From Syntrophaceae bacterium UBA1411 (GTDB lineage: Bacteria; Desulfobacterota; Syntrophia; Syntrophales; Smithellaceae): a DNA stretch of 64,000 nucleotides. The notes beneath the pieces are model-generated. The model saw only the letters and a program-made list of their open reading frames with translations. It made no database searches and had not been told where the DNA came from. Below are positions 31,719 through 47,146 of this stretch, one piece after another; within the stretch, counting starts at the first letter, position 1; each line of letters opens with the position of its first letter. The stretch spans positions 1,613 through 65,612 of the forward strand of contig DBPV01000004.1 in assembly GCA_002304995.1 (NCBI GenBank), given 5' to 3'. Position numbers and translations under genes: made by a program.

Positions 31719-32999
31719 TTGATTGGTAAAAAAACCGGCTGCGCGCTGTTGATCGTTTCTTTGCTGGGCATCTTTGCCGCCCTGTACTTTTTTTCCTCCT
31801 GGCCTGCCGGCCGGCCGGGACAGGTGACTCACGAGCCGCCTTCCTTCACTTCCATCGCCGGCGCCATCGAACCGGGAGAAACCCTCTACTCGGTCTTTCA
31901 AAAACATGCCTTAAACCTTGATGACCTGTTTGCCATGAGACAGGCGGCGGCAGAGGTGCACCGTCTGAAAGAGGTCTATCCGGGTCAGCCCTACCGCTTC
32001 TCGGTTGACGCCGGGAAAAGCATCCGTTCCTTCACTTACGGCATTACGGAAAATACCTTCCTCACCATCGAACGCGGCGCCGGGGGCTTCCAGGCCCGCA
32101 AATACGAAATTCCCTACGAGTCGCGCCTTCTCACCGTCGGCGGCGATATCAACGGCAGTCTCGTCGGGGCGCTGGGCTCCGCACAGGAGGACATTGCGCT
32201 GGCCGTCGCGGTGTCGGAAATTCTGGCGTGGGACATTGATTTCAACACCGATCTCCGGGAAGGCGATTCGTTCAAGGTCATCGTGGAAGGCCTGTACCTG
32301 CAGGGAAAATTCAGGAAATACGGGAAAATCCTCGCCGTCGAATTTCTCAACGACAACAAAAAACATGTCGCTTACCGCTTTGAACAAAACGGCCGCCCGG
32401 ATTATTTCGACGCCGGCGGAAAATCGCTCAGGAAAGCCTTTCTTAAAGCGCCGCTCAGTTTCCGCAGAATCAGTTCGGCTTTTTCCCGTTCGCGCCGGCA
32501 TCCGATCTTAAAGGTGCGCCGCCCCCACCACGGCATCGACTACGTCGCCCCGCAGGGAACGCCGGTCTCGGCAACGGCCGACGGCCGGGTCACCTTTGCC
32601 GGACGCCGGGGCGGGTACGGCAAACTGGTCGTCCTCGCGCACCGCGGCGGCCTGACGACTTACTACGGCCATCTTTCACGTTTCGCCGCGGGCATCCGCG
32701 CCGGGAAAACCATCGGCCAGGGGGACCTGGTGGGATACGTCGGCGCCACCGGACTGGCAAGCGGCCCGCACCTGCACTACGAAGTGCGCCACGATGCCAG
32801 GCCGGTCAACCCGGTCCGCTTCAAAATGGCCGCGGGCGATCCCGTGCCGCAGCGGTTTCTGGCGGCGTTTCAGGCAACAGCCGCGCATCTCGACCGGACT
32901 CTGGCGCAGGCCGTCTTCTATGAGGCGCGCGATGCGAAAAACCGCGGCATCGGCGGCGCCCTGGCGCTGCAAACCGACCCGTCGCCCTTCCTGAATTAA
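31719..32999 (+). CDS. M23 family metallopeptidase (periplasmic, N-terminal anchor)
   Basis: 426 aa. TTG start 7 nt after AAGGAGG. N-terminal TM segment. HxxxD (HHGIDY) and HLHYE zinc-ligand motifs of the LytM/M23 domain. Confidence 0.88.
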   Translation: MIGKKTGCALLIVSLLGIFAALYFFSSWPAGRPGQVTHEPPSFTSIAGAIEPGETLYSVFQKHALNLDDLFAMRQAAAEVHRLKEVYPGQPYRFSVDAGKSIRSFTYGITENTFLTIERGAGGFQARKYEIPYESRLLTVGGDINGSLVGALGSAQEDIALAVAVSEILAWDIDFNTDLREGDSFKVIVEGLYLQGKFRKYGKILAVEFLNDNKKHVAYRFEQNGRPDYFDAGGKSLRKAFLKAPLSFRRISSAFSRSRRHPILKVRRPHHGIDYVAPQGTPVSATADGRVTFAGRRGGYGKLVVLAHRGGLTTYYGHLSRFAAGIRAGKTIGQGDLVGYVGATGLASGPHLHYEVRHDARPVNPVRFKMAAGDPVPQRFLAAFQATAAHLDRTLAQAVFYEARDAKNRGIGGALALQTDPSPFLN

Positions 33000-33186
33000 G
33001 GCAGCCGGCCGTCATCGGCTCCGGGCTCCGCTTTTTATTACATTGACAGAAGCGCATTATTTGCCTATAGTGACAATCAAAAGGTTTTCTCTGTGGGCCG
33101 CCCGTCATTGCGGTCCGTTCATTTTTTTTCACGTCCGTCGTCGGTAAACCCCTCTTCTTAAAAAGTCGAATGGAGGATTGATTATT

Positions 33187-33603
33187 ATGGCAGAACGTAC
33201 AATACACATCACAAAATTTGACATGGACCGCCTGCTGGAGCTCATCGACGGCCTGCGGGCCACACCCAAAGCCGTTAAAATAGACCTCGACCTTCTGGAA
33301 AAGGAGCTTTACCGCGCCACGCTGGTCGAGCCGCAGAATATACCGCGCGACGTCATCACGATGAACTCCAAAGTCAGCGTCACGGACATCGAATCCGGCG
33401 AAAAGACGACTTATACCCTTGTGTTTCCGTCCGCGGCCAACATCAGCGAAAACAAGCTGTCCATTCTGGCGCCCCTGGGTATGGCGCTTCTGGGATACCG
33501 CACGGACGACATCGTCGAATGGCGCATGCCGTCCGGCGTCCGCAAACTTCGGGTGGACGGCATCCTCTATCAGCCGGAAGCGGCCGGAGATTATCATTTA
33601 TGA
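33187..33603 (+). CDS. rnk: GreA/GreB-family regulator Rnk (nucleoside diphosphate kinase regulator-like)
   Basis: 138 aa from ATG 33187 (GGAGG lies 10 nt upstream). Short coiled-coil N-terminus plus a GreA/B C-terminal domain (..ISILAPLGMALLGYRTDDIVEW..). Confidence 0.75.
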   Translation: MAERTIHITKFDMDRLLELIDGLRATPKAVKIDLDLLEKELYRATLVEPQNIPRDVITMNSKVSVTDIESGEKTTYTLVFPSAANISENKLSILAPLGMALLGYRTDDIVEWRMPSGVRKLRVDGILYQPEAAGDYHL

Positions 33604-33654
33604 TTTGACGGACCGGTTTTTTTCGTCTATGCACTCTCGACAAGGATACATGCG

Positions 33655-34707
33655 ATGATCGAGAGATTGAAGAACAAAGCCATCCGGAAAAAGGGCATCG
33701 GACCTTCCGAAGCGCTGGAGCTGTTCATCGAAGGAACCCATTCCCCTTACCGCGTCCTTGCCGCGGCCAGTGAAATCCGCGAACACTTCAAGGGCAAGGC
33801 CATCATACTCTGCGGCATCGCCAACGCCAAATCCGGCAAATGCTCCGAAGACTGCGCCTTTTGCGCCCAGTCGTCGCGCCACGCCGCAGAAGTTCCGATC
33901 TACCCGCTCAAAAGCGCCCGGGAAATCGTCGCCGCTGCGCTTTCGGCCCGCAGGGACGGAGCGGAATTTTTCAGCATCGTCACCAGCGGCAGACGCATCG
34001 CGTCACAGAAAGAGTGGAAGGAAATCTTCAAGGCCGTCGACGGCATGAACCGCATCGGCATCCGTCCCTGCGCATCGCTGGGGATGATCGACACGATTCG
34101 GGCCCGCGAACTCAAAAACGCGGGGCTTTTCCGCTATCACCACAATCTCGAAACGGCCCGTAGTTTTTTTAAAAACATCTGCACCACCCACGACTACGAA
34201 GAAAACCTCGCCACCGTCCGCGCCGCGAAGGAGGCGGGGCTTTCGGTCTGTTCCGGCGCGCTCTTCGGCATGGGCGAAGGGATCACGCACCGCATCGAGC
34301 TGGCCGCGACACTGGCCGGACTCGGCGTCGATTCCGTTCCGGTCAATCTGCTTCATCCGATCAAGGGAACGCCGCTTGCGCACATGCCGCTTCTGCCGCC
34401 TCTGGAAGTTCTCATGACGCTGGCCGTTTACCGTTTCATGCTGCCGGACAAGGACATCAAACTGTGCGGCGGAAAGGAAAAAACCCTGCGCCAGCTCCTG
34501 CCGCTGGGCATTATCGCGGGCGCCAATTCGCTGATGACGGGCAATTACCTGACCACCACCGGCCGCGACAGCCGGCTCGACCATGAGATGATCGCCGACT
34601 TGGGACTGATCCCCACCCGCGAGCTTGATATCTGCCGCTGCGGAAGAGAAGGAGAAAACGGCTGCCCCGCCGCCGCGGCCGCAAAAGGAAAAGCACCCCG
34701 GACGTAA
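33655..34707 (+). CDS. bioB: biotin synthase (radical SAM)
   Basis: 350 aa. CSEDCAFCAQS (CxxxCxxC) motif. The ..YHHNLET.. and ..GKE.. regions are typical of BioB. Confidence 0.88.
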   Translation: MIERLKNKAIRKKGIGPSEALELFIEGTHSPYRVLAAASEIREHFKGKAIILCGIANAKSGKCSEDCAFCAQSSRHAAEVPIYPLKSAREIVAAALSARRDGAEFFSIVTSGRRIASQKEWKEIFKAVDGMNRIGIRPCASLGMIDTIRARELKNAGLFRYHHNLETARSFFKNICTTHDYEENLATVRAAKEAGLSVCSGALFGMGEGITHRIELAATLAGLGVDSVPVNLLHPIKGTPLAHMPLLPPLEVLMTLAVYRFMLPDKDIKLCGGKEKTLRQLLPLGIIAGANSLMTGNYLTTTGRDSRLDHEMIADLGLIPTRELDICRCGREGENGCPAAAAAKGKAPRT

Positions 34708-34795
34708 ATGGTTTTGAGATCCGGGAACGTCCTGCCGGAAATCTGCGCCGGCGCCGCCCTGTATCGGAAGCAGTCGCCGCCGTCGACATTTTTCA

Positions 34796-34824
34796 TTGAC
34801 AGCTCCGGGGTTCTTTCTTATACC
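34796..34824 (+). promoter_or_regulatory. sigma-70-type promoter of the acyltransferase gene, sharing a core with the promoter at 36845
   Basis: TTGACA (34796-34801), 17 nt, TATACC (34819-34824). The 14-mer ATTGACAGCTCCGG (34795-34808) is identical to 36844-36857. Confidence 0.55.
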
Positions 34825-34859
34825 TCCCGGCGCAGGAAACAACGACAAGGAGAATTCCC

Positions 34860-35726
34860 ATGGGTTTTCGCGACCGCGCCGACGGCGTTCTGCTCACCAA
34901 AATATCCGGCTTCCGCAAAATGTGGCCCTACCTCATGCCCACCCGCGGAGAATCCACGCTCTATGCCACGCAGCGGATCCGGCTCGGCAACACGCTGGCC
35001 TGGCTGGAGCGGGCAAACGCCGGGCGGGAAGAAAAGCTGACCCTGTTTCACGTTATCCTGGCGGCCAGCGTCCGCCTGTTTGCGCTTCGTCCGGACCTGA
35101 ACCGCTTTGTCGCCGGCCGGCGCATTTATCAGCGGCGCGCCATCGACATCTCCTTTGTCGTCAAGCGGGAAAAATCGGAGCGGGGCTCGGAAACCACCCT
35201 CAAGCTCACGTTTGATCCGTTCTCCACGATTGAAACCGTCGCTCGGCAGGTGGCGGCCGCCGTTTCGTCCACCCGAGAGAGCAAATCATCCCACGATGAG
35301 AGCTTCTCCAATCTTCTGACGGTCATGCCGCGGTTTCTGATCCGGTCTCTGGTCCGCTTCGGACACATCCTCGACTATTTCGGGCTTCTGCCCGCCTCCT
35401 ACATCCGCGGCGACGCCATGTTTGCCAGCGGCTTTTTATCCCATCTGGCCAGCATCAACCTGGATGCGGTCTACCATCCTCTGTTTGAATGGGGAAACGT
35501 TTCATTTTTTCTGGTGATCGGCAAAAAGAAAAAGGAGCCGGCGGTGAGCGAAGAGGGCAACCTCCGGATCGAAGAGGTCATGGACCTCGCTTTCAGCCTC
35601 GATCACCGGGTGACAACCGGAGTGCATTTTTTCAAAGGCATTGCGCTGTATGTCGATCTCCTGGAAAATCCCGCTCCCCTGATGGAGAGACCGCAAAATC
35701 TTCCCGATCCGCTGGCACAGGCCTGA
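34860..35726 (+). CDS. stand-alone 2-oxoacid-dehydrogenase E2-type (CAT-fold) acyltransferase catalytic-domain protein
   Basis: 288 aa. The C-terminal SLDHRVTTGVHFFKGIALYVDLLENP aligns with the E2 catalytic motif DHRxxDG....F......LE.P. No lipoyl or subunit-binding domains. Confidence 0.7.
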   Translation: MGFRDRADGVLLTKISGFRKMWPYLMPTRGESTLYATQRIRLGNTLAWLERANAGREEKLTLFHVILAASVRLFALRPDLNRFVAGRRIYQRRAIDISFVVKREKSERGSETTLKLTFDPFSTIETVARQVAAAVSSTRESKSSHDESFSNLLTVMPRFLIRSLVRFGHILDYFGLLPASYIRGDAMFASGFLSHLASINLDAVYHPLFEWGNVSFFLVIGKKKKEPAVSEEGNLRIEEVMDLAFSLDHRVTTGVHFFKGIALYVDLLENPAPLMERPQNLPDPLAQA

Positions 35727-35789
35727 CCGGGTACGCCGTTTCGTCCGACCCTTTTTTTCGGGCCGGCGCCGGGATGAGGCCGGGCCGTT

Positions 35790-36779
35790 TTACCGAAGCC
35801 ACTTTTCCTTGCGGTACCAGTCGATCGTTTCTTCCATCCCGCGGGCCAGATCGTATTCGGAGCGGAAATTCAGCTCCGCGCGGAGCGGCTCGACATCGCA
35901 GTTCCAGTTGCCGGCTACCAGTTCATTGACCTTTTCCCGGTTCAAAACGGGAGGCTTTTGCAAAATCCGGCAGGCCGGTTCCGCAGCGGCGGCGATGATC
36001 CGGACCAGCCACACGGGCAGGGCCACATGCGCTGCTTTCCCGCCCAGACACCCGGCGACAATTCGCCCCAGATCGCGGCTGCCGTACAGGTGGCCGTCGG
36101 CGGCGAAATAGGCCCGATTGACGTGCGGCGACTCCAGCGCGGCGAAAACCAGGCGGACCAGGTCTTTGACGTACATAAACGTGAGGCGCTGATTTTTTCT
36201 TCCCGCCTGCAGGGCCACGCCGCGGCGGATCAGTTTGATCGCTTCGAAGATGTCCCTTTCACCGGGCCCGTAAACCGCGGTGGGACGGATGATCACATAC
36301 GGCAGGCCTTTTTCCGCGAGAATTTTTTCGGCGGCCAGCTTGCTTTTCCCGTAAGCCGTCACGGGCCCGGGCGTTGTCGTGCGCAAAACGGGGCCGCCGG
36401 ACGGATCGCCGGGACCGAACGCGGCCAGGCTGCTCATCAGCAGAAACTTCTCCGGTATCCGGCCGGTTTGCAGCAGGGCCTCCGCGAGCCGGCGCGTATT
36501 TTCGGCGTTGACTTCAAAATATTCTTCGGGAGAAAGCGATTTCGTCAGGCCCGCATTGTGAATGACGTAATCGCAGCGGGGCAGAAAACACAGTTGATCG
36601 CGCAGGCGGGACGCCGATGAAAAGTCGCAGGTCACGACGGGAATGTTCCGGGCGTCCAGATAGCCGGTTTGGCTGGTTTGCCGGACGGCGGCCACCAGGT
36701 CGTAGCCGCGCCGCAGGGCTTCCTCCACGAGAAAACGGCCGATAAAACCGGTCGCGCCGGTAAGCAGAATTCTTTTCAT
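35790..36779 (-). CDS. NAD(P)-dependent epimerase/dehydratase-family reductase (extended SDR)
   Basis: Start moved to ATG 36779 (MKRILLTGATGFIGRFL...). GxxGxxG motif, and a YGKSK (YxxxK) catalytic dyad preceded by MSS. Confidence 0.85.
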   Translation of the reverse strand: MKRILLTGATGFIGRFLVEEALRRGYDLVAAVRQTSQTGYLDARNIPVVTCDFSSASRLRDQLCFLPRCDYVIHNAGLTKSLSPEEYFEVNAENTRRLAEALLQTGRIPEKFLLMSSLAAFGPGDPSGGPVLRTTTPGPVTAYGKSKLAAEKILAEKGLPYVIIRPTAVYGPGERDIFEAIKLIRRGVALQAGRKNQRLTFMYVKDLVRLVFAALESPHVNRAYFAADGHLYGSRDLGRIVAGCLGGKAAHVALPVWLVRIIAAAAEPACRILQKPPVLNREKVNELVAGNWNCDVEPLRAELNFRSEYDLARGMEETIDWYRKEKWLR

Positions 36780-36844
36780 ACGCAAGAACGCCGTCCTTTT
36801 GGCCATCGGTATAAAAAGCGCCGGCAAGCCTGTCAAGAAGATAA

Positions 36845-36873
36845 TTGACAGCTCCGGCCAACTCTTCTATATT
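36845..36873 (+). promoter_or_regulatory. sigma-70-type promoter of the LolA-like/barrel/oxoamine-synthase operon
   Basis: TTGACA (36845-36850), 17 nt, TATATT (36868-36873). It shares the identical 14-mer ATTGACAGCTCCGG with 34795-34808. Confidence 0.55.
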
Positions 36874-37108
36874 TCCCGGGCAAAACGAGAACGCTCAACC
36901 ATCCGGCCGGGGAACCGAACGTAAACCCTGCGTTCTGACCACGCCGGATTATCATGACAAAAGACGAAAAAGGCTGGACAAGATGTTTTTAATCCACTAC
37001 ACGCAAAACAACATACCGTCGGGCCTTTTTGGCCGGGCTTGCCGCCCCGGCCGGAATTCCTCCCGCGGGAAAAGCCGTAAAAAATTCATCCCGGAGGGGT
37101 TCTGCCCG

Positions 37109-37885
37109 ATGACCGACAAACGGATTCTCCTTTTACTGCTTGCGGCGTTTCTGCTCGTTCCGGCCTTGGCCGACGCCATGAGCGGGCGAGAAATCTTCGA
37201 AAAAATGCACGAGGTGCGCCTGCGCATGCTCAACCAGAAAACGGAAGCCACGATGGTGCTTTACGACCGGGGCGGCGGCAAACGCATCCGCACGCTCACG
37301 CAGTACAGCAAAAACGCGGCTCCCGAAGCCTACAAGGTTCTTTTGATCTTCAACTCGCCCGCGGATTTGAAAAACGTCGGCTTTCTGGCGCATGCCCGCA
37401 CGTTTTCCGACCGAAGCCTCTGGGCGTATTTTCCCGAATTCAAGCGGATCCGGCGCATTCCCACATCCGCCCAGGACGATTCCTTCTTCGGCTCCGACTT
37501 TTCCTACGACGACTTCAGCGGGCCGCCGAATCTCGACGACTATGCCTTCAAGGTGCTTCGGGAGGAAACCGTCGACGACAGGCCCTGCTACGTGGTGGAA
37601 GTTTCGCCGAAGATTCCCCGTAAATATTCAAAATACATCACCTGGGTGGTCAAAAACCTCTGGATAACCGCCAAAGTCGAGTTTTACCGGGAAAAGGAAT
37701 TGTACCGTCTGGGGGCTTTCCGCGACATTCGCCTGGTGGACGGACTTCCGACGCCCTTTACGCTGGAGATGCAAAACGTCAAATCCGGACATCGGACGGT
37801 GGTGACCGTCAACAAAGTCAGCTACCGAACCAGTTTCCCCGATGAGCTTTTCACCCAGCGGGCGCTGGAGCGGGGGGGCAGATAG
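37109..37885 (+). CDS. LolA-like outer-membrane lipoprotein-sorting family protein (periplasmic)
   Basis: This is the real part of track ORF 36845..37885, from ATG 37109 (GGAGGGG upstream). Signal peptide ..VPALADA. The motif ..RIPTSAQDDSFFGSDFSYDDF.. is typical of the LolA_like family. Confidence 0.7.
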   Translation: MTDKRILLLLLAAFLLVPALADAMSGREIFEKMHEVRLRMLNQKTEATMVLYDRGGGKRIRTLTQYSKNAAPEAYKVLLIFNSPADLKNVGFLAHARTFSDRSLWAYFPEFKRIRRIPTSAQDDSFFGSDFSYDDFSGPPNLDDYAFKVLREETVDDRPCYVVEVSPKIPRKYSKYITWVVKNLWITAKVEFYREKELYRLGAFRDIRLVDGLPTPFTLEMQNVKSGHRTVVTVNKVSYRTSFPDELFTQRALERGGR

Positions 37886-37931
37886 CCGCGGCTGCCTGCG
37901 ATCGCCACAACAGTTTTAAGGAGAGACAAAC

Positions 37932-39293
37932 ATGAAAAAACTATGGTTGGCCGCCGTTGTGCTGTTTTGCTGGGCTTCCGGAAGTTACGCGGAAGACTTT
38001 CTGAACGTTTCGGGGAAACTTCATTTGCGGGGCGTCGTTCCGCTGCACAGTGAAAGCGTGATGGAATACCCGAGCCTCCTGGGGCAGCTCAAGGTCGACA
38101 CCAAACCGTCTCCCCTGCGTTTCCACATGTGGCTCGAAGGCGGTTGGGACGGAAGCGTCACTCTGCCGGTGGAAGACCATTCCACCCTCAAGTTCGGCGA
38201 TCGGGTCTATCAGAGCACCACGCCGTTTCTGGAATTCAAGGAACTCTACGGCTCTTACTCCACCGACTGGCTGGAAGTCCGCGCGGGCATCCAGCGCTTC
38301 GCCTGGGGCAGGCTTGACGAGTATCCCGTCAACGATCTGCTCAACCCCTGGGACTATTCCCAGTTTTTGAGGAAGCCGCTGGAAGACCGCAAGATCGGCG
38401 TTCCGTCGCTTTCGACACGCCTCAGCCATGACACCTGGAGCCTCGACGCGGTCTGGGTTCCCGTCTTCATCCCGTATCGCCTGCCGCTTTCCACCGAACG
38501 CTGGTCGCCCCTCAATCAGATGGTCAGCCGGTTCAACAACCTGCCGGTCAATTTTCTCACCAGCGACGCCGACATTCCGTCGCGCAATCTGGCTTCGGGC
38601 GCAGGCGGCCTGCGTCTTTCGAAAACAGGCGTTGTCGACTGGAGCGTCAACCTGTTTCACGGCTACGATCCGCGGCCGGTGCTGAAGGCCACCCGGCTCA
38701 TTATCGCGCCGGTGGCCGGCCAGGTCGCCGTCGAGCCGGGCGCGGTGGCCGATTTCCACAAAATGTCGTCCTTCGGTCTCGATGCGGCGTTCGTCAAAGG
38801 CCCCTGGAGCCTGCGCGCCGAAGCGGCTTACGCGGTCGGACGCTACTTCAACACCAATCTCGAGCGCTGGGGCTATCCGGCCGTTCCCGCGTTCGGCGTT
38901 TATCCGCTCGCCCCCAACGAGCATAAGAGCGATTCACTGGACTACGGCATCGGCGCCGATTACCGCGTCTTCGAGGACTGTCTGCTCACCATGCAGGCCC
39001 AGCAAACCGTGATCCTGGACCGGCCCGATTCGCTCTACCAGCAGAAGTTTGAAACGATCTTCTGGGCCAACCTGAGAAACGGTTTTCTCAATCAGCGGAT
39101 CATCACCAATCTCAACGCCGCCTACAATCCCGAGCACGGCGGCGTCATGGCCCGGGGCAACGTCTCGTACGTGCTTTCCGACTACTGGAAGGTCGGCGTG
39201 ACGGCCGTCGGTTTCTGGGGACCCGAGCAGTCCCTGTTCGGCAGATACAAAACCAATGATCAGGTAGAGGTGGATCTCGTTTTTTCATGGTAA
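37932..39293 (+). CDS. outer-membrane beta-barrel protein (DUF1302-like)
   Basis: 453 aa. Signal peptide ..SGSYA. Alternating beta-strand pattern and C-terminal aromatic residue (..LVFSW). The ..GIQRFAWGRLDEYPVNDLLNPWDY.. block resembles the DUF1302 signature (recollection). Confidence 0.6.
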   Translation: MKKLWLAAVVLFCWASGSYAEDFLNVSGKLHLRGVVPLHSESVMEYPSLLGQLKVDTKPSPLRFHMWLEGGWDGSVTLPVEDHSTLKFGDRVYQSTTPFLEFKELYGSYSTDWLEVRAGIQRFAWGRLDEYPVNDLLNPWDYSQFLRKPLEDRKIGVPSLSTRLSHDTWSLDAVWVPVFIPYRLPLSTERWSPLNQMVSRFNNLPVNFLTSDADIPSRNLASGAGGLRLSKTGVVDWSVNLFHGYDPRPVLKATRLIIAPVAGQVAVEPGAVADFHKMSSFGLDAAFVKGPWSLRAEAAYAVGRYFNTNLERWGYPAVPAFGVYPLAPNEHKSDSLDYGIGADYRVFEDCLLTMQAQQTVILDRPDSLYQQKFETIFWANLRNGFLNQRIITNLNAAYNPEHGGVMARGNVSYVLSDYWKVGVTAVGFWGPEQSLFGRYKTNDQVEVDLVFSW

Positions 39294-39315
39294 GAGAAAA
39301 CGAAATAAAAGACGC

Positions 39316-40584
39316 ATGGAAACTCAAAAAAACACGGACGAAAAAGCGAAACAGCGTATTCACCAGGAAATCATCGAATTTCAGGGCGACGACCTCTTTG
39401 ACGTAAAAAACTACTTCTGGGAATTTTTCCAGGACGGCATCCGGCAGAAGCACTACATTTATCTCAATCCGCTGGCCACCGCGCCCACTGCCCAGGTGCA
39501 GGCCTACGACCGCTACACGAAAAGCGTCCGGCCGTATCTTAATTTTTCATCCTACAATTATCTGGGATATTCCGTTTATCCCGAGGTGATCCGCGAAGTT
39601 CAGGACACGCTGGCCAAATACGGAACGGGCGCCGCGTCCGCGCCGCTTTTCAGCGGCTACTACGACGTCACCGAAAGGCTGGAGAAAAAAATCGCGGCTT
39701 TTAAAAACAAGGAAGCCGCGCTGGTATTTCCCACCGGCTACAGCGCCAACGTGGGCGTCCTGTCCGGTCTGCTCAAGCCGGGCGACGTCGCGGTTCTGGA
39801 CATCCTGGCCCACGCCTCCATTTACGACGGAGCGAAGCTGGCCGGCGCGGAGATCAAAGTCTTCAGCCACAACAGTCCGCGCCATCTGGAGCGGGTCCTC
39901 AAAAGCCTGAACACCCGGCGGGCCATCGTCTGCGTGGAGGGCGTCTACAGCATGGACGGCGACCTGGCCAGACTGCCCGAGATCGTCGCGCTCTGCCGGA
40001 AATACGGGGTTAAAATTCTGATCGACGAGGCGCACGCGACACTGATTTTCGGCGAACACGGCCGCGGTGTGGCCGAGCATTTCGGCGTGGAAGACGCCAT
40101 GGACATCAGCATCGGCACCTTCAGCAAGTCCTTCGGCGCCATCGGCGGTTTTGCCGCGGGCGACGAAAAGCTGATCAATTATCTGCGTTTTTCCGCCCGT
40201 TCGTATATTTTCTCCTGCGCGATGGCGCCGCACACGGCGGCGGGCATCCTCAAAATCCTGGAGATTTACGACCGCGACAAAAGCCAGCGGGAAAAACTCT
40301 GGGACAATGTCCGCTACATGCATAAAGCGCTTACAGACGCCGGCCTCGATATCGGAGACACGCAATCCCAGGTGGTGCCTGTTTTTGTCGGAGAGGAACT
40401 GCGCCTGCGGGAAGTCGGCCGGCGGATTTATGAAAAAGGGTTGTACACCGGCATCGTGACGTACCCGGCCGTATCCAGCAAACGCACGCGCCTGAGGCTT
40501 TCCGTATCGTCCTATCACACGCAGGAACAGATGGACACCTGTTCGGCCATCCTGAAGTCGGCCTTTGACGAGGTTCCTGAGTAA
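39316..40584 (+). CDS. PLP-dependent alpha-oxoamine synthase (serine palmitoyltransferase/BioF/KBL family)
   Basis: 422 aa. YLNFSSYNYLGY, HASIYDG, VEGVYSMDGD, DEAH and the PLP-lysine motif GTFSKSFG. About 75 aa precede the NFSSYNYLG block, as in bacterial SPT and longer than in E. coli BioF. Confidence 0.85.
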   Translation: METQKNTDEKAKQRIHQEIIEFQGDDLFDVKNYFWEFFQDGIRQKHYIYLNPLATAPTAQVQAYDRYTKSVRPYLNFSSYNYLGYSVYPEVIREVQDTLAKYGTGAASAPLFSGYYDVTERLEKKIAAFKNKEAALVFPTGYSANVGVLSGLLKPGDVAVLDILAHASIYDGAKLAGAEIKVFSHNSPRHLERVLKSLNTRRAIVCVEGVYSMDGDLARLPEIVALCRKYGVKILIDEAHATLIFGEHGRGVAEHFGVEDAMDISIGTFSKSFGAIGGFAAGDEKLINYLRFSARSYIFSCAMAPHTAAGILKILEIYDRDKSQREKLWDNVRYMHKALTDAGLDIGDTQSQVVPVFVGEELRLREVGRRIYEKGLYTGIVTYPAVSSKRTRLRLSVSSYHTQEQMDTCSAILKSAFDEVPE

Positions 40585-40608
40585 AGCGGCCCTGCGGCGG
40601 GCGTGGAT

Positions 40609-42225
40609 TTATTGCGGCAGCGTAAAGTAAAAGGCGGCGCCTTTTGCCGGCTGGCCCTCCGCCCAGACCCGGCCGCCGTGCAGGGCGACAATCCGGCGGA
40701 CCGTGGCCAGACCGATTCCCGTGCCGGGAAAATCTTCCGGGCTGTGCAGACGCTGAAAGGCGCCGAAAAGTTTCCCGACCTGGGCCATGTCAAAGCCTAC
40801 GCCATTGTCCCGGACGCAGTAGACGGGCTCGCCGTCCCGGAAGGTCATGCCAAATTCAATCCGGGGGCAATCGCTCCGGCCGGTAAACTTCCAGGCGTTT
40901 TCCAGCAGATTGGTCAGTGCAATCCGCAGCAGATTGGCGTCTCCCCACGCCGTCACACCGTCCTGAATCCGAAGCGCGATTTCCGGGCGGGGACGGTTCT
41001 GCCGGCACAGATCGGCCGCCGCACGAACCAGGGCGCTGAGATCGATTTTTTCGCGCTTGAATTCCAGCCGCGTCACCCGCGACAGTTTCAGCAGATCCTC
41101 GATCAACTGCCCCATCCGCTGAGCGGCGCGGCGCACCCGGTTGAGGTAGTCCTTCGCCTGATCATCCAGCTTGTCTGTATAATCTTCCAGCAGCGTTTCG
41201 CTGAAGCCGTCGATGATCCGGAGCGGCGCCCGCAGGTCGTGGGAAACCGAATAGCTGAAAGTCTTCAGCTCTTCATTGGACGCCTCGAGCTGCATGGTGC
41301 GCTCCCGGACCCGCCGTTCGAGCTCTTCGTTGAGACGGCGGATTTCATCCTCCGCCTTCTTGCGTTCGGTGATGTCGCGTGCGATGGAAATCATGCCGAT
41401 GATCGCCTCGTCCCGCCGGACGGGGGAACAGCTGACTTCGCCGTAGCGGATGCTTCCGTCGTTGGCGATAAACGTATAAACCGTCATGGGAACGGACCGG
41501 CCCGCGAGGACGGAAGAAATGTCGGCCGCCGCGCGTTCGAACGATTCCTGCGCCATGATCCGCCTGAGGTCGCCAACCGGACGGCGCAGAAAAGCCTCCG
41601 GCGTGTGGCCCAGGATTTTCGCGATGCTGGGAGACATGCTGGCGATGGTGAGATTCGCGTCGACAATGAAAACGACATCCGTGATGTTTTCAAAGCTCAG
41701 GCGATACTTTTCCTCCAGCGCCCGCAGATCCCGGTTGGCCGCTTCCAGATCCGCCATCTTCTTTTCCAGCTTGCCGAAAAGAATTTCATTGTACCGGCGG
41801 AAGAATTCCATTTCTTCGCCCAGCGGGCGTTCGGCCCCGCCGCGGACCTTTTTGTTTTGCGCGAGCAGTTGCGCCAGGATGCTCCCCAGCGCCTCCGGTT
41901 CCTGCGGCTTGACGAGAAACAGGTCCGCTCCCAGATCCAGCGCAAAGCGTTCATCTTTTTGCTGGGTGTAGGTGGCCGTGTAAAAAACGAAAGGAATGTC
42001 TTTAAGGCGCTCGTCGGCTTTGATTTCGCGGCACAGTGTGTAGCCGTCCATGACCGGCATCAGAATGTCCGTGACAATCAGATCGGGATTTTCCGCGCGC
42101 GCCTTCTCGAGCGCGATTTTGCCGTTTTCCGCCTCAAGCGCCTCCCAGCCCTGCCCCTCCACCAGGCTTTTGAGCAACCACAAATTGGCGCTGTCGTCGT
42201 CAACGATCAAAACCTTTGCTTTCAT
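40609..42225 (-). CDS. hybrid REC-PAS-histidine kinase
   Basis: 538 aa. N-terminal receiver (VDDD...DILMPVMDG), coiled coil, PAS domain, H-box (SVSHDLRAPL) and an HATPase domain with N/G boxes (LLENAWKF, DNGVGF, GTGIGLA). Confidence 0.88.
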   Translation of the reverse strand: MKAKVLIVDDDSANLWLLKSLVEGQGWEALEAENGKIALEKARAENPDLIVTDILMPVMDGYTLCREIKADERLKDIPFVFYTATYTQQKDERFALDLGADLFLVKPQEPEALGSILAQLLAQNKKVRGGAERPLGEEMEFFRRYNEILFGKLEKKMADLEAANRDLRALEEKYRLSFENITDVVFIVDANLTIASMSPSIAKILGHTPEAFLRRPVGDLRRIMAQESFERAAADISSVLAGRSVPMTVYTFIANDGSIRYGEVSCSPVRRDEAIIGMISIARDITERKKAEDEIRRLNEELERRVRERTMQLEASNEELKTFSYSVSHDLRAPLRIIDGFSETLLEDYTDKLDDQAKDYLNRVRRAAQRMGQLIEDLLKLSRVTRLEFKREKIDLSALVRAAADLCRQNRPRPEIALRIQDGVTAWGDANLLRIALTNLLENAWKFTGRSDCPRIEFGMTFRDGEPVYCVRDNGVGFDMAQVGKLFGAFQRLHSPEDFPGTGIGLATVRRIVALHGGRVWAEGQPAKGAAFYFTLPQ

Positions 42226-42300
42226 TCTTTTCTCCCGTTTTTCCGCCCGCGCAAAGCGCCGAGACCAAACGCGCGGCAGGCCATTGAAAAAAAACCGCGC

Positions 42301-42729
42301 TTACGTCGGCCGGCTTGGATCGCCGGGGCGGGACAAACCAAACCGGACGGCAATGTCCTCGCACATTTGCCGGTAAAAGGTTTTCACATCGATGCGTTTT
42401 TCAAAAAAAGCGCACCGCTTGCCAAGCTCGCCGGTGAGGTTTTCCTCCAAATTGTATCCGCTGATGAGGATGCAGGGAACGTTTTTCAAATCGGGATGTT
42501 CTTCATCGATGCGTTTGATCAGCTCGACGCCGGTCATGGCCGGCATCGCGTAATCCAGAACCATCAGATCCGGTTTCAGACCCCCTGCGATGAGCTCCAG
42601 AGCTTCCTGCGGCCGACGCGCCTCGACAAATTCGAGTTCGGCGTCCCTGAGCAGCCGCCGGATATGGAGAATGGACAGGACGCGGAAGTCATCTTCATCA
42701 TCGACAAAAAGAACGACGATTTTATCCAT
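42301..42729 (-). CDS. single-domain response regulator
   Basis: Start moved to ATG 42729 (MDKIVVLFVDDEDD...), preceded by AGGAG. The receiver-domain pattern has its phospho-acceptor Asp in MVLDYAMP. Confidence 0.8.
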   Translation of the reverse strand: MDKIVVLFVDDEDDFRVLSILHIRRLLRDAELEFVEARRPQEALELIAGGLKPDLMVLDYAMPAMTGVELIKRIDEEHPDLKNVPCILISGYNLEENLTGELGKRCAFFEKRIDVKTFYRQMCEDIAVRFGLSRPGDPSRPT

Positions 42730-42780
42730 GCCTCTCTCCTGTGGAACAGCCGCCAAAGCGGAAACCGGCCGGCCGTCTTT

Positions 42781-44097
42781 CTATGGTGTTTCCGTCTCCG
42801 GAGCGGAAATCGCCGCGCCGGCTTCGGGGAGCGCTTCCACCGACCGCAATTTACCGGCCAGCGTCCGCGTCTTTTTCTGGGCATCATCGACGGAGCTCGC
42901 GGCCGCATCCAGTTTCTTGCGCACCGAATCGAGCGTATCGCCGAAGCGGCTGAACGCCGTCTTCACCTCGCCTAAAACCTTCCAGACTTCGCCGGAGCGC
43001 TTCTGGATGGCCAGCGCGCGGAAGCCCATTTGCAGACTGTTGAGAAAGGCGGCAAACGTCGAGGGGCCGGAGACGACGATGCGGAAATCGCGCTGCAGGG
43101 CCGACACCAGCGCAAAACGGCGGATCACTTCGGCGTAAAGGCCTTCCGACGGCAGAAACATGATGCCGAAATCGGTGGTTTTCGGCGGCGCCAGATATTT
43201 CTGCGCAATGTCTTTCGCGGCCTTTTTGATGCTTGCGTCGAGCTGTCGCGCCGCGTCTTCCGCGGCCGGAGCGTCGCCGCGGTCCTGCGCTTCCGTGAGC
43301 CGGACGTAGTCCTCCACCGGAAATTTCGCGTCCACCGGAATCAGCACGGCATCGGAGGGACAATCGCCCTGGCCGGGCAGACGAATGGCAAACTCGACGA
43401 AATCGCCGCCCTCCTCCCGGATCCGGACGTTTTTCAAGTATTGATCGGGTGAAAGGATCTCCTCGAGCAGCGCGCCCAGCTGCACTTCGCCCCACGTGCC
43501 GCGGGATTTGACGTTGGTCAGCACCTTTTTCAAATCGCCCACGCCGGCGGCCAGCGATCGCATATCGCCCAGCCCCCGGTGAACCTGCTCGAGTCTTTCG
43601 GAAACCTGCCGGAAAGATTCTCCCAGGCGCGCCTCGAGCGTCCCCTGAAGCTTTTCATCGACGGTCTGCCGCATGCGGTCGAGCTGGCGGGCGTTGTCTT
43701 CCTGAATCTGTTTGAGTTTTTCGTCAATGATGCCGCGGATGTCTTCCAGCTTCTTTTCATTGGCCGCCGTCAGGAGCCCCAGCTGCCGGGAAAAGCTTTC
43801 CAGCTGATCGTTTTGGATTTTGGCGCTGTCGGCCAGGCGCGCCTGGACGGAATCACTGAAAGAGGCGAGCGTGCGCGCCAGTTCGGTTCTTTCCTCCTGG
43901 GACGACGCCCGCGCTTCCGAGCGCGCGCGGCCCATCTCATCGCGCAGAGAGCGGTCGGTCCTCTCCTGAGCGTCCAGAAGCGCCTCCAGCTTTGCAGCCA
44001 GCGGCGACCAATCGACCGGCCGCCGCCTCAGCTGCACCAATTGCAGCAAGACCACAATCAGCAGCAAGACAGCCAAAATGTAGAAAAGAATTTCCAT
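42781..44097 (-). CDS. rmuC: DNA recombination protein RmuC
   Basis: 438 aa. N-terminal TM helix, long coiled coil, and a C-terminal RmuC nuclease-like domain (..GTWGEVQL...VDAKFP...FGIMFLPSEGLY..). Confidence 0.88.
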   Translation of the reverse strand: MEILFYILAVLLLIVVLLQLVQLRRRPVDWSPLAAKLEALLDAQERTDRSLRDEMGRARSEARASSQEERTELARTLASFSDSVQARLADSAKIQNDQLESFSRQLGLLTAANEKKLEDIRGIIDEKLKQIQEDNARQLDRMRQTVDEKLQGTLEARLGESFRQVSERLEQVHRGLGDMRSLAAGVGDLKKVLTNVKSRGTWGEVQLGALLEEILSPDQYLKNVRIREEGGDFVEFAIRLPGQGDCPSDAVLIPVDAKFPVEDYVRLTEAQDRGDAPAAEDAARQLDASIKKAAKDIAQKYLAPPKTTDFGIMFLPSEGLYAEVIRRFALVSALQRDFRIVVSGPSTFAAFLNSLQMGFRALAIQKRSGEVWKVLGEVKTAFSRFGDTLDSVRKKLDAAASSVDDAQKKTRTLAGKLRSVEALPEAGAAISAPETETP

Positions 44098-44141
44098 CTC
44101 AACCCGATAGCCTTAAAGACGGCAGCCTGTCGCCCTTTCGT

Positions 44142-44768
44142 CTAAAACACCCGCTGGAAATCGCGGTCCCGCAGAAGGGTCGTAAAGGCCAGATCGATGA
44201 GCTGGTAGCCGCGCCGTTCCAGTTCGGCCTTGTCTTCGGTGGCGGCCGGCGCCATTGTCACCGTGAAATCCTTGTCCAGTTTCGTTTCGCCTTCCTTGAA
44301 GATAAGCGCCTTGAATTTCAATTCCTGATCGGTCATTGACAGCAGAATAAACTGAAATTCGGCCACTCCCCGGGGCGCCTTGTAGCCGCCGGGACCGGGA
44401 GCGCCCCACCACCAGCCGTGGCGGTAAGGATGGCTGCCATCATAGGTGTAGTCCACGAGAATCACGCCGACATGCTTGAAAGCCTTCTGAAAGCTGTTCC
44501 AGTACAAATTTTCGAGGCTCACGTTGCCTTCATAATTCAGTTTGTTGTCCGGGCTGAAATAGTTGTAGGTTTTGGTATTCTGGGCCTGATTGAAAAAGCT
44601 CGAAAGCACCAGCTTCTTGCCTTTGTAACGGGCAAAGTCGTTTGCCTTGAAGGAAGGGGCGTACTTTTCCTGCGTCATCGTGATTTTCGTGCCGCCCGCG
44701 CAGCCGGTTACAACCAGCGCGAGAATGCAAAAGCCCGCCAGGGCACGCCAGGGAATAATTTTTTTCAT
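44142..44768 (-). CDS. lipoprotein of unknown function
   Basis: Start moved to ATG 44768 (MKKIIPWRALAGFCILALVVTGC...), preceded by AGGAGG. Lipobox LVVTGC. I recognise no family. It contains an unusual HPYRHGWWWGAPGPGGY patch. Confidence 0.6.
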   Translation of the reverse strand: MKKIIPWRALAGFCILALVVTGCAGGTKITMTQEKYAPSFKANDFARYKGKKLVLSSFFNQAQNTKTYNYFSPDNKLNYEGNVSLENLYWNSFQKAFKHVGVILVDYTYDGSHPYRHGWWWGAPGPGGYKAPRGVAEFQFILLSMTDQELKFKALIFKEGETKLDKDFTVTMAPAATEDKAELERRGYQLIDLAFTTLLRDRDFQRVF

Positions 44769-45025
44769 GATCGGTACCTCCTTTGCTTTAATGGTCAAAT
44801 AATAGTGTCGGGAAAATTTTTCAAATCATAGCGGTCAAGAGTTTCCCGTGTCAAGCAAAATGAGGACCGGTTGCGCGCTGCGGAAAGGCTCCCGCAAACG
44901 GACGAACGGATTTTTTTCCGCCGCCTGCCAACAATTTCCTTTGGGGAAGGAAAATCCTGTGCTAAACTTTCCAGGAAACAGAGGCCGTTGCCGCCATCGG
45001 ACGGCGTGCGCGAGGAAAGCGATTC

Positions 45026-45715
45026 ATGCAAAACGAACTCATGAATATCCTGCCGAATGCGGACGACTATGTCATCGGCTTTGCCGACCTGGAAGACCTG
45101 GTCAGACAACATTATCCTTACCGCTACGCCGTGGTGATCGGCAAGAAGCTTGACGATGCGGTCATCGACGGCATCGAACAGGGTCCGACGCCGGTTTACT
45201 ACGACCTGTACCGCGCCACCAACGACGAGCTCAACCTGATCACGGCGAAAATGTGCCGCTTCCTGACACAAAACGGCATCTCCTGCCGCGAGATTAAAGC
45301 CACCGTCCAGGAAGACGACAGGCCGGCGGATTTTGCCCGGACGCTGCGGATGCCTTTTTCGCACAAGATGGCCGCAACCCGCGCCGGACTGGGCTGGATC
45401 GGCAAGACCGATCTCCTGGTATCGGAGCGCTTCGGCCCCCGCCTGCGGCTGGCCACGCTGCTCACCAATCACCGGTTTGCCGAACTGGGCGTTCCCATTG
45501 CCGAAAGCCGCTGCGGCGAGTGCACCATGTGTCTGGAGGCCTGTCCGGCCGGGGCAGCCAGCGGCCGTCTGTGGAACGACGCCACCGACCGCGATGAATT
45601 TTACGACGCCGGCAAGTGCCGCGACGCCTGCCGGCGGCTGTCGCAGGAAAAGCTCAACCGGGAAGTTCATCTGTGCGGCATCTGTGTTTCTGTCTGCCCC
45701 TGGGGCCGGCGGTGA
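45026..45715 (+). CDS. 4Fe-4S cluster protein, epoxyqueuosine-reductase (QueG)/reductive-dehalogenase-like fold, short form
   Basis: 229 aa. The ..AATRAGLGWIGK..L......GPR..LAT.. block resembles QueG. Two ferredoxin-type motifs are present (CGECTMCLEACP, CGICVSVCP). Confidence 0.6.
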   Translation: MQNELMNILPNADDYVIGFADLEDLVRQHYPYRYAVVIGKKLDDAVIDGIEQGPTPVYYDLYRATNDELNLITAKMCRFLTQNGISCREIKATVQEDDRPADFARTLRMPFSHKMAATRAGLGWIGKTDLLVSERFGPRLRLATLLTNHRFAELGVPIAESRCGECTMCLEACPAGAASGRLWNDATDRDEFYDAGKCRDACRRLSQEKLNREVHLCGICVSVCPWGRR

Positions 45716-46074
45716 TGGCCATGACCTCTCCCCGCTGGTACGATGAGCTGCCGATCGGCATCATCACCTGCGACACAAAGGGCGTCATCCTCTGGATGAA
45801 CGACCGGGCGGCGCTCATCTTCCGGCAATCCGGCGGAAGGGATCTCATCGGCAAAAACATGCTCGCCTGCCATCCCGAAGACGCGCAGAAGCAAATCCGG
45901 GACCTCTTCACGACGCAAAAATCGCACGCCTATACCGTTGAAATCCATGGCGTAAAATGGCTGCTTTCCCAGGCGCCCTGGTACGAGAACGGCCGCTTTG
46001 CGGGATACGTTGAATTTCTCCTGACGCTGCCCGATCCACTGAAAACGCTGCCCGGAATCCGCTGGGTCCGCTAG
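45715..46074 (+). CDS. small PAS-domain protein
   Basis: 119 aa from ATG 45715, sharing nucleotide 45715 with the upstream TGA stop (gTGATGg, stop 45713-45715). The sequence ..GIITCDTKGVILWMNDRAALIF....DLIGKNMLACHPE.. is PAS-like. Confidence 0.65.
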   Translation: MAMTSPRWYDELPIGIITCDTKGVILWMNDRAALIFRQSGGRDLIGKNMLACHPEDAQKQIRDLFTTQKSHAYTVEIHGVKWLLSQAPWYENGRFAGYVEFLLTLPDPLKTLPGIRWVR

Positions 46075-46089
46075 CCGGCAAAAATAGTC

Positions 46090-46133
46090 TTGACAAAAAC
46101 ACAAGGACGCCTATTATACCCCCATAGGGTATA
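46090..46133 (+). promoter_or_regulatory. sigma-70 promoter with overlapping 7-5-7 dyad operator
   Basis: TTGACA (46090-46095), 16 nt, TATTAT (46112-46117). The dyad TATACCC-ccata-GGGTATA (46115-46133) overlaps the -10 element, 24 nt before ATG 46157. Confidence 0.55.
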
Positions 46134-46156
46134 AAACGGACAGGAGGAGAGGGATC

Positions 46157-47146
46157 ATGAAAACACATGATGGCCATTTGAGCCGCAGATCGTTTTTAAA
46201 GATCGGCGCGGGCGCGGCGGCCCTGGCCGGCCTGAAATGGCCGAAAACGGCCGGCGCCGCCGATGAGAAGCGTCTGGCGACGCTCATTGACTTAAGCCTG
46301 TGCGACGGATGTCCCGACCGCCCGATGCCGGCCTGTGTCGGCGCCTGCAGGGCCATCAACAAAGACAAAATTCCGCCGGTCGCCAAAAACATTCCCGAAC
46401 CCTGGCCGCGCAAGACCATTGAGGACTGGTCGAAGAAAAAAGAGGTCTTCAACCGTCTGACGCCTTACAATTTCATTTACGTGCACGATGTCCGGATCGA
46501 CGGAAAAACGATTTACGTTCCCCGCCGCTGCATGCACTGCGACAATCCTCCCTGTGCGACCATCTGTCCGTTTTCCGCCAACCACAAAGAGAAAAACGGC
46601 GCGGTGGTCATCGAGCAAAACCAGTGTTTCGGCGGAGCGAAATGCCGGGATGTTTGTCCCTGGGAAATTCCCCAGCGCCAGTCCGGCGTCGGCATTTACC
46701 TGCATGTCCTGCCGGATTTCATGGGCAACGGCGTCATGTACAAATGCGATTTGTGCAACGAGCGACTCCAGGAGGGAAAGCTTCCCGGCTGCGTTGAAGC
46801 ATGCCCCCGCCAGGCCATGCTCATCGGTCCGCGCCGGGAAATTGAAAAAAACGCCCTCGAGCGCGCCCGGGCGATGAACGGCTATCTTTACGGCAAAACG
46901 GAGAACGGCGGAACATCGACCTTCTACGTCTCGCCCGTCTCCTTTGAAAAGATCACCCGGGCGATGGAGAAAAAACCGGGCCGTCCCGACATGAAGCCGG
47001 ATGTCAAAAGGCGCATGGCCGCCACCGATCCGCTGGGCAACGCCGTCCTCGCCGCGCCGGTCCTGGGCGCTGTTGCCGCGGGCGCGCTGGGATGGATTTC
47101 CCGCCGCAAAGCGCAGGGGAAAAAGGAGGGCGAAAATCATGGCTGA
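46157..47146 (+). CDS. Tat-exported 4x[4Fe-4S] ferredoxin-type subunit with C-terminal membrane anchor (FdnH/HybA-like)
   Basis: 329 aa. Twin-arginine signal (SRRSFLK). Four Cys clusters (CDGC...C..AC, CMHCDNPPCATICP, CFGGAKCRDVCP, CDLC...CVEACP). C-terminal TM helix. Confidence 0.85.
   Translation: MKTHDGHLSRRSFLKIGAGAAALAGLKWPKTAGAADEKRLATLIDLSLCDGCPDRPMPACVGACRAINKDKIPPVAKNIPEPWPRKTIEDWSKKKEVFNRLTPYNFIYVHDVRIDGKTIYVPRRCMHCDNPPCATICPFSANHKEKNGAVVIEQNQCFGGAKCRDVCPWEIPQRQSGVGIYLHVLPDFMGNGVMYKCDLCNERLQEGKLPGCVEACPRQAMLIGPRREIEKNALERARAMNGYLYGKTENGGTSTFYVSPVSFEKITRAMEKKPGRPDMKPDVKRRMAATDPLGNAVLAAPVLGAVAAGALGWISRRKAQGKKEGENHG

Follow-up and report, generated by a model that had tools for sequence, protein, structure and literature searches.

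Ceramides are made in Caulobacter and Bacteroides by the Spt-bCerS-CerR pathway (Stankeviciute et al. 2022, as summarised in PMC11087976 and PMC11334938). Spt-like genes also occur in Desulfobacterota and many anaerobic phyla without bCerS or CerR nearby (PMC11334938), and no flippase or transporter has been identified for bacterial sphingolipids (PMC11087976). The known Lol or MacB-like exporters, of the type VII ATP-binding cassette (ABC) class, include LolCDE-LolA-LolB of E. coli, BBJ23-29 of Borrelia (PMC13078400) and LolA3 of P. gingivalis (PMC13103446). The Borrelia clusters, which combine a MacB-like ABC transporter, a LolA-like protein and a barrel, have been proposed to export a non-polar ligand (PMC13078400), and LolA3 does not bind LolB and is reported to have a separate function (PMC13103446). 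Pairs of DUF1302 and DUF1329 proteins work with RND transporters and have been linked to hydrophobic substrates, as in Pseudomonas PP_0765/0766 and Castellaniella AmeABCD (bioRxiv 10.1101/2020.07.04.188060; PMC6394551). Here we describe a locus of five genes at positions 34795-40584 of a 64-kb stretch of DNA (the window; contig DBPV01000004.1 of Syntrophaceae bacterium UBA1411, family Smithellaceae). The locus combines known module types in a new arrangement, with a putative chemistry. At a probability of roughly 40%, we read it as a Smithellaceae-specific composite, in which a synthase resembling serine palmitoyltransferase (SPT) and lipid-type acyltransferases are linked to a Lol-like export module. 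It is a plausible, lineage-restricted candidate for amino-lipid synthesis and export.

The closest database proteins are from Smithellaceae, with 94% identity, and the rest of the window holds housekeeping genes, including leu and trp operons. A check of the open reading frames (ORFs) with Pfam and NCBIfam confirmed the five genes that a sequence-only reading had proposed, with their positions, strands and domains, as well as the two motifs quoted for the reductase. The locus is composed of the following features.

34795..34830, plus strand: promoter-like element, copy 1 (TTGACA, 17-nt spacer, TATACC), 30 bp upstream of the E2-like gene

34860..35726, plus strand: E2-core-fold protein, 288 aa, stand-alone, putative lipid acyltransferase (2-oxoacid_dh; AlphaFold2 and Foldseek)

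35790..36779, minus strand: extended short-chain dehydrogenase/reductase (SDR), 329 aa, cytoplasmic (Epimerase; GATGFIG, YGKSK)

36844..36879, plus strand: promoter-like element, copy 2 (TTGACA, 17-nt spacer, TATATT), about 230 nt upstream of the LolA-like start codon

37109..37885, plus strand: periplasmic LolA-like carrier of the TP_0789-like or LolA3 type, 258 aa (LolA_like)

37932..39293, plus strand: outer-membrane beta-barrel, 453 aa (weak DUF1302; AlphaFold2 and Foldseek)

39316..40584, plus strand: SPT-like alpha-oxoamine synthase (AOS), 422 aa, last gene of the operon (Aminotran_1_2)

The SDR gene is convergent with the E2-like gene and divergent from the LolA-like operon. The gaps between the LolA-like and barrel genes (46 bp) and between the barrel and AOS genes (22 bp) are short, a scan of the window (other loci were not scanned) found no terminator-like site between these three genes, and a sigma-70-like site at 36845-36873 matches the consensus at 11 of 12 positions. 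These features fit a LolA-like/barrel/AOS operon, so the carrier and barrel are probably co-transcribed with the synthase, as had been proposed. The two promoter-like elements form a 36-nt direct repeat with 75% identity, which includes a 14-nt exact core, ATTGACAGCTCCGG. In the 64 kb, this core has two mismatch-free copies, both in these elements; four matches occur when up to two mismatches are allowed (expected: 0.55), a number not attained in any of 100 shuffles. Both copies are kept in the relative with 94% identity (L008/L091), and the operon copy is also kept in L009, where it lies upstream of a permease gene. The near-identical elements appear to tie the E2-like gene to the LolA-like operon; they are promoter-like by their match to the consensus, not mapped promoters, and are the sole direct sequence evidence for joint regulation of the two units. 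The leader of about 230 nt before the LolA-like start codon also contains a GC-rich inverted repeat, GGCCGGGCTTGCCGCCCCGGCC, at 37027-37056, and the region 33000-42500, this repeat included, has no Rfam match (riboswitch or other known RNA) at E <= 1. Signal peptides are present in the carrier and the barrel and absent from the AOS, the SDR and the E2-like protein. A role in anti-phage defence was rejected, since PADLOC matched none of the five proteins.

The synthase matches Pfam Aminotran_1_2 (E 2.7e-52) and carries GTFSKS at residues 267-272, with Lys271 as the pyridoxal-phosphate (PLP) lysine, HASIYDG at 166 and DEAH at 237, which bears out its earlier assignment as an alpha-oxoamine synthase. 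It lies below every NCBIfam equivalog cut-off. The score is 342 for the bioF model TIGR00858 (cut-off 426), 322 and 266 for the KBL models PRK06939 and TIGR01822 (cut-offs 460 and 493) and 337, 326 and 271 for the SPT models NF047600, NF047599 and NF047603 (cut-offs 640, 500 and 670); falling below all three SPT models counts against SPT membership proper. The CqsA model gives 223 (cut-off 428), the lowest value of the oxoamine-synthase family models except two minor ones. AOS genes from comparable metagenomes served as positive controls; they reach 442-481 with the bioF model or 478-621 with the KBL models and pass. Among PDB matches, the highest bit score belongs to the Sphingobacterium SPT (270), followed by Thermus BioF/KBL (241), Sphingomonas SPTs (220-230), KBLs (about 210), CapB (206), SulA (203), ALAS (about 189) and E. 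coli BioF (181). CqsA (129) is the weakest match among the catalytic oxoamine synthases with solved structures. The lysine motif GTFSKS...GGF is common to the AOS and the SPTs. We calculated a neighbour-joining (NJ) tree with 300 bootstraps from 13 clade members, E. coli BioF and Kbl, labelled metagenome sequences, and SPT and ThAOS sequences transcribed from printed alignments; sampling is thin, with five named reference enzymes, two of them SPTs, and CapB, CqsA and ALAS left out. Monophyly of the synthase clade has 100% support; the clade clusters with the S. wittichii SPT in 86% of the replicates and with the pair of SPT references in 55%. It joins BioF, KBL or ThAOS in no replicate. The scores and the tree support a position outside BioF and KBL, with the SPTs as the probable nearest relatives. 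Members of the clade are strongly conserved, with 65-72% identity among Smithellaceae, Bacteroidales, Spirochaetota, Aminicenantes and Clostridia-labelled metagenome-assembled genomes (MAGs). It is an unnamed oxoamine-synthase clade, highly conserved across several anaerobic phyla.

A biotin gene adjoins the locus. The bioB gene at 33655-34707 (TIGR00433, 366 bits, cut-off 225) lies upstream of the E2-like gene at a distance of 150 bp, and the synthase could be the BioF of the organism, working with this BioB. The 64-kb window yielded no second AOS, and automated JGI names of some orthologues read '8-amino-7-oxononanoate synthase'. The score of 342 lies below the cut-off, whereas real BioFs from similar samples reach 442-481; no tree replicate places the clade with BioF, and PGAP names the orthologues generically. 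The bioB gene sits alone, with no bioA, bioD or bioF noticed among the genes examined (the window was not scanned for them), and its adjacency to the locus is confined to the window and the 94% relative, being absent from L001, L005, L011 and L013. BioF identity was thus rejected because of the HMM scores, the control sequences, the tree position and this non-conserved adjacency; it is essentially excluded, and the partnership with BioB is extremely improbable. The sequence-only reading had named the BioF clade as the place that would count against a lipid synthase, and the enzyme falls outside it. KBL genes usually adjoin tdh. A KBL identity was also rejected, on the HMM scores, the positive controls, the tree and the absence of an adjacent tdh.

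The E2-like protein is a stand-alone member of the E2/CAT fold, as had been claimed. Pfam 2-oxoacid_dh (PF00198) matches above its cut-off (E 1.6e-12) over only the last 55 or so residues, and no lipoyl or PSBD domain was found with Pfam. The AlphaFold2 model, with a predicted local distance difference test (pLDDT) value of 77, aligns with E2 cores in Foldseek at E of about 1e-13 over about 250 columns, with target-normalised template-modelling scores of up to 0.77. The window protein contains D-H249-R-VTTG and H206-x3-E210-W-G-N. The latter motif, HxxxEWGN (206-213), is invariant across the family alignment (A1) and lies about 40 residues upstream of the canonical His site. A profile search at E <= 1e-30 gave a family of 478 clusters at 50% identity, and members were retrieved from 80 species-level genomes, including Aminicenantes, Spirochaetota, Myxococcota, Thermotogota, Actinobacteria and Asgard archaea. 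Their neighbours are recurrently enzymes of acyl lipids. An AMP-binding acyl-CoA ligase lies directly 3' of the E2-like gene in ten loci (Spirochaetota, Thermotogota, Bacteroidales), PlsC-type acyltransferases are encoded downstream of it in six loci of Aminicenantes type, of which L021 and L023 have the two genes side by side, and likewise in the Smithellaceae-type loci L005, L011 and L092, and GT4 glycosyltransferases accompany the gene in seven Spirochaete loci. Orthology of the Smithellaceae and Aminicenantes PlsC-type neighbours was rejected (BLASTP E 1.3), so the association is with the PlsC family and not with one orthologue. Fusions within the family (P0415-P0496) join it to WS/DGAT, PAP2, a GtrA-type membrane domain or an AMP-ligase domain. 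These contexts support a role of the family in acyl-lipid metabolism and suggest that it is a distinct, uncharacterised family of lipid-associated enzymes. Of the proposal that this acyltransferase replaces the GNAT-type bCerS, the link to acyl lipids is supported, as the family is found beside, or fused to, acyl-lipid enzymes, and the name 'ceramide synthase' is not. Outside Smithellaceae, the only AOS genes found near an E2-like gene are those of Rectinema (L083, L087), which are ordinary KBLs (621 bits). The synthase clade and the E2-like family are both present in Aminicenantes, Bacteroidales and Clostridia-labelled MAGs; on one Spirochaetota contig of 2,744,431 bp (L003, L062) they lie about 115 kb apart, an anecdotal case in which the E2-like gene overlaps an acyl-CoA ligase gene.

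The carrier matches Pfam LolA_like (PF17131) at E 6.3e-52, and DUF1329 at E 1.1e-9 over residues 63-150 only. It has a signal peptide, MTDKRILLLLLAAFLLVPALA, without a lipobox cysteine, and its best PDB match is LolA3 of P. gingivalis (9TP6, E 6.5e-35). The barrel has a weak DUF1302 match (25.1 bits, cut-off 23.2), a signal peptide, a C-terminal VFSW and no lipobox. Its AlphaFold2 model consists almost wholly of beta structure (pLDDT 73; the other four of five models do not exceed 53), and Foldseek aligns it with 16-18-strand outer-membrane barrels, with porins, MOMP and AlgE at E 1e-11 to 1e-9. Both genes are the distal half of a four-gene cassette that encodes a MacB-type ABC ATPase, an 862-aa double-FtsX permease, the LolA-like protein and the barrel. 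The ATPase and permease are present in L001/L037, L005, L011, L013 and L088-L090, and in L092 by tblastn; among short contigs, L010 and L014 contain only the ATPase, to which L012 adds a cut-off permease. In all cassette loci, the barrel gene lies 3' of the LolA-like gene, either immediately or, in L088 and L090, after one intervening gene, so that the earlier pairing of the two is real and conserved. The cassette contains no LolB-type outer-membrane lipoprotein receptor, its partner at that membrane being the porin-like barrel, and neither the window nor the related loci contain an RND or BNR gene. Delivery to the outer membrane by the carrier and barrel is a reasonable analogy with the described systems.

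The arrangement of these genes is retained in the lineage. The order E2-like-(SDR)-(PlsC)-ABC-FtsX-LolA-like-barrel-AOS occurs in five distinct relatives (L001/L037, L005, L011, L013 and L092), and a short form that lacks the ATPase and permease is confined to the window and its 94% relative (L008/L091). In nine of nine Desulfobacterota loci, the E2-like gene is directly next to the cassette or to whatever part of it the contig contains. An orthologue of the SDR is found in L001/L037, L008, L009, L011 and L013. On a complete Smithellaceae chromosome, the locus (L009, 10001-14626) consists of the E2-like gene, the SDR and the promoter-like sequence, followed only by the double-FtsX permease, with no ATPase, carrier, barrel or synthase; this reduction is complementary to that of the window. 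The cassette is being dismantled differently in different Smithellaceae, as the window keeps the carrier, barrel and AOS and L009 keeps the permease only. Decay of the reduced cassette in the window was considered and rejected, because the ratio of nonsynonymous to synonymous substitution rates (dN/dS) is 0.09-0.14 for the barrel and carrier. Calculated against the 94%-identical L008, the values are 0.09 for the barrel, 0.11 for the AOS, 0.14 for the carrier, 0.18 for the E2-like gene and 0.27 for the SDR. All five genes are intact and under purifying selection, and the barrel is the most constrained.

The sequence analysis establishes the gene identities, folds, operon-like spacing, promoter-like elements, lineage-restricted synteny and purifying selection; each chemical step of the mechanism below is inferred, as are the substrate and what the carrier and barrel transport. 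In the Smithellaceae lineage, an SPT-like AOS gene would have become attached to the 3' end of the cassette, with the E2-fold acyltransferase-like protein and the extended SDR, and in some relatives a PlsC-type protein, placed just upstream. In the cytoplasm, the synthase would condense an amino acid with a fatty-acyl thioester to a long-chain 3-keto-amine, to which the E2-like protein, together with PlsC where present, would attach acyl chains. Reduction of the ketone may also take place, with the neighbouring SDR as a possible but not specifically supported reductase. The amphiphilic product would then leave the inner membrane and ride in the hydrophobic groove of the LolA-like protein, which would hand it to the barrel for insertion into the outer membrane or release. 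Since the ABC ATPase and permease are missing in the window, extraction from the inner membrane would be supplied in trans or be unnecessary there.

Several observations weigh against this composite. The SPT grouping has an NJ bootstrap of 55-86% with five named references and metagenome sequences, and the AOS shares 37% identity with SPTs and 36-37% with environmental BioFs; because taxon sampling is thin and these identities are equal, we name the enzyme SPT-like and not SPT. In most of the 29 aligned members of the E2-like family, the canonical E2/CAT His (DHRxxDG) is Glu or Gln. With the invariant HxxxEWGN, this suggests that the chemistry may differ from that of a classical E2. The sequence-only reading had likened the SDR to the ceramide reductase CerR. 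It matches Pfam Epimerase (E 3.2e-36), with GATGFIG at residues 8-14 and YGKSK at 143-147, and all of its NCBIfam hits are far below their cut-offs, the best including HpnA and OleD. The best PDB matches are NDP-sugar epimerase-like proteins, and NDUFA9, a relative of CerR, is not among the best 60 of 85 matches at E <= 0.01. The protein lacks a signal peptide and is cytoplasmic, and CerR is periplasmic (PMC11087976). Identity with CerR was rejected on these grounds, with the CerR traits taken from that paper and no direct comparison with the CerR sequence. The SDR is also absent in L010, L012 and L014 and is replaced in L005 by a non-orthologous SDR.

Conservation outside the lineage points the same way. 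The AOS is joined to the cassette solely in genomes whose copy shares at least 80% identity with that of the window. At 77% identity (L134/L135) it lies beside Rrf2/NadA, apart from the cassette, and at 65-72% (L002, L003, L004, L093-L095, L136) it has no conserved neighbour. These stand-alone orthologues (65-77%) belong to Smithellaceae-related, Spirochaetota, Bacteroidales and other genomes; no neighbours are conserved beyond synteny within a lineage, and the small ORFs downstream of them show no relationship among themselves or with the E2-like protein. Archaea, Actinobacteria and Thermotogota also have members of the E2-like family, all without the cassette, and in the recovered genomes outside Desulfobacterota the SDR, the carrier, the barrel and orthologues of the synthase are all missing within 10 kb of the E2-like gene. 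Neither the ABC ATPase nor the permease is encoded anywhere in the 64-kb window. The ABC/LolA3-like/barrel cassette, in turn, is widespread in Desulfobacterota and Nitrospirae without the synthase, as in Geobacteraceae, where it lies behind a PadR regulator, in Nitrospirae and in L088, a paralogous cassette with an alpha/beta hydrolase between carrier and barrel and a CapK-like ligase after them. Three cassettes without a synthase are located as follows.

L088, 4003-11855: cassette without synthase

L089, 4359-10362: cassette without synthase

L090, 3690-10404: cassette without synthase

The five genes had been expected to be co-conserved in related genomes, and only a few Smithellaceae-type genomes keep the set. 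It is a family-level feature and not a widely conserved operon. Overall, the sequence-only observation holds, and its interpretation is supported in part.

Such a distribution can also be explained without a shared pathway, by lineage-specific synteny of a self-sufficient synthase, a cassette with another hydrophobic cargo and a separate acyl-lipid or glycolipid route of the E2-like protein and SDR. The cassette would then export or efflux, for example, lipoproteins, xenobiotics or other lipids. PadR-type regulators are typical of efflux systems, and one cassette without the synthase follows such a gene. The synthase stands alone in every lineage outside the group with at least 80% identity, the E2-like family is far wider and has other partners (GT4, acyl-CoA ligase, PlsC), and the cassette has been reduced differently across Smithellaceae, as the window and L009 show. 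These points agree with synteny alone, which we consider the main alternative and only a little less probable than the composite. Coincidence explains less well that the barrel-AOS gap is 22-75 bp in five loci, with about 210-225 bp in L011 and L013, that the 22-bp gap of the window has no terminator-like site, and that the gene order is kept though the proteins have diverged to 60-85% identity. It also leaves aside the duplicated promoter-like element linking the E2-like gene with the operon and the grouping of three to four lipid-type enzymes around one exporter. We retain the composite of synthesis and export as the preferred reading.

The AOS enzymes include autoinducer synthases, and a different product can be considered: a small diffusible amino-ketone or alpha-hydroxyketone, as a CqsA/LqsA-like signal or as an aminoketone that yields a pyrazine by dimerisation, that would leave via the barrel. 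A gene for a hybrid response regulator/histidine kinase with a PAS domain (40609-42225, minus strand) converges on the synthase gene, with the stops 25 bp apart, and could sense the compound. A DUF6597/AraC-type regulator sometimes precedes stand-alone synthase orthologues or is fused with them (P0084; L004, 9145-11272), which hints at small-molecule-responsive expression of those orthologues. The CqsA comparisons are poor, with 223 against 428 for the model and 129 bits for the structure. The kinase gene is convergent, and its position beside the synthase is shared by the window and the 94% relative but by no more distant relatives; the LolA-like carrier suggests an acylated, membrane-bound cargo. 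A diffusible signal is very unlikely. On the strand opposite to the kinase gene, a spurious 790-aa ORF overlaps it. Elsewhere in the window, 27589-29097 (minus strand) encodes an HpaB_N/HpaB-family protein of 502 aa; in strict anaerobes, members of this family are often 4-hydroxybutyryl-CoA dehydratases.

The composite could be specified further as a Smithellaceae sphingolipid-type pathway, in which the E2-fold protein replaces the GNAT ceramide synthase and the ABC/LolA3-like/barrel cassette delivers the lipid to the outer membrane. We consider this version unlikely. If true, it would provide the first candidate for the missing bacterial sphingolipid transporter and assign a function to the PF17131/LolA3 family and to the E2-like family of about 480 clusters; if the association is synteny only, the locus is ordinary. 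The locus offers concrete candidate genes for what replaces bCerS and CerR in anaerobes with Spt-like genes alone (PMC11334938), and for how bacterial sphingolipids cross the periplasm (PMC11087976). Its relevance is limited by its candidate status, the uncultured lineage and the reduced form in the window. The E2-fold family, with its relocated conserved motif and its consistent link to acyl-lipid enzymes, deserves attention as well.

Compared with the known systems, the locus shares parts with each and is identical to none, and no literature pairing 'alpha-oxoamine synthase' with LolA was found. Like the Lol and type VII ABC exporters, the relatives encode an ABC ATPase, a MacB_PCD/FtsX permease and a LolA-fold protein with an outer-membrane barrel. 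Unlike in those systems, the permease is a single 862-aa double-FtsX protein, the barrel is porin-like with 16-18 strands and is neither LolB nor Omp85, and the window itself lacks the ATPase and permease. As in the DUF1302/DUF1329-RND systems, a DUF1302-type barrel goes together with a periplasmic protein of the LolA superfamily; however, the DUF1302 match is marginal (25 bits), the carrier belongs to PF17131 and is not a true 450-aa DUF1329 protein, and the inner-membrane partner in the relatives is an ABC transporter instead of RND and BNR. The capnine or sulfonolipid pathway (CapB/SulA and CapC) uses an AOS and a reductase of the epimerase/dehydratase family, to which CapC belongs, for an outer-membrane amino-lipid, and in this it resembles the locus; it differs in that CapB and SulA are farther from the AOS than the SPTs are (206 and 203 bits) and that the locus has no cysteate synthase. 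Lastly, in comparison with Spt-bCerS-CerR, no GNAT-type bCerS, acyl carrier protein (ACP) or ACP synthetase is found in the scanned flanks (31719-34707 upstream, 40609-47146 downstream), the reductase is cytoplasmic and not NDUFA9-like, the synthase fails the three NCBIfam SPT models, and the acyltransferase candidate has an E2 fold with a family active site that is mostly non-canonical. Nevertheless, as in that pathway, an SPT-like PLP oxoamine synthase is accompanied by a putative acyltransferase and an NAD(P)-dependent reductase, and the product would be expected in the outer membrane.

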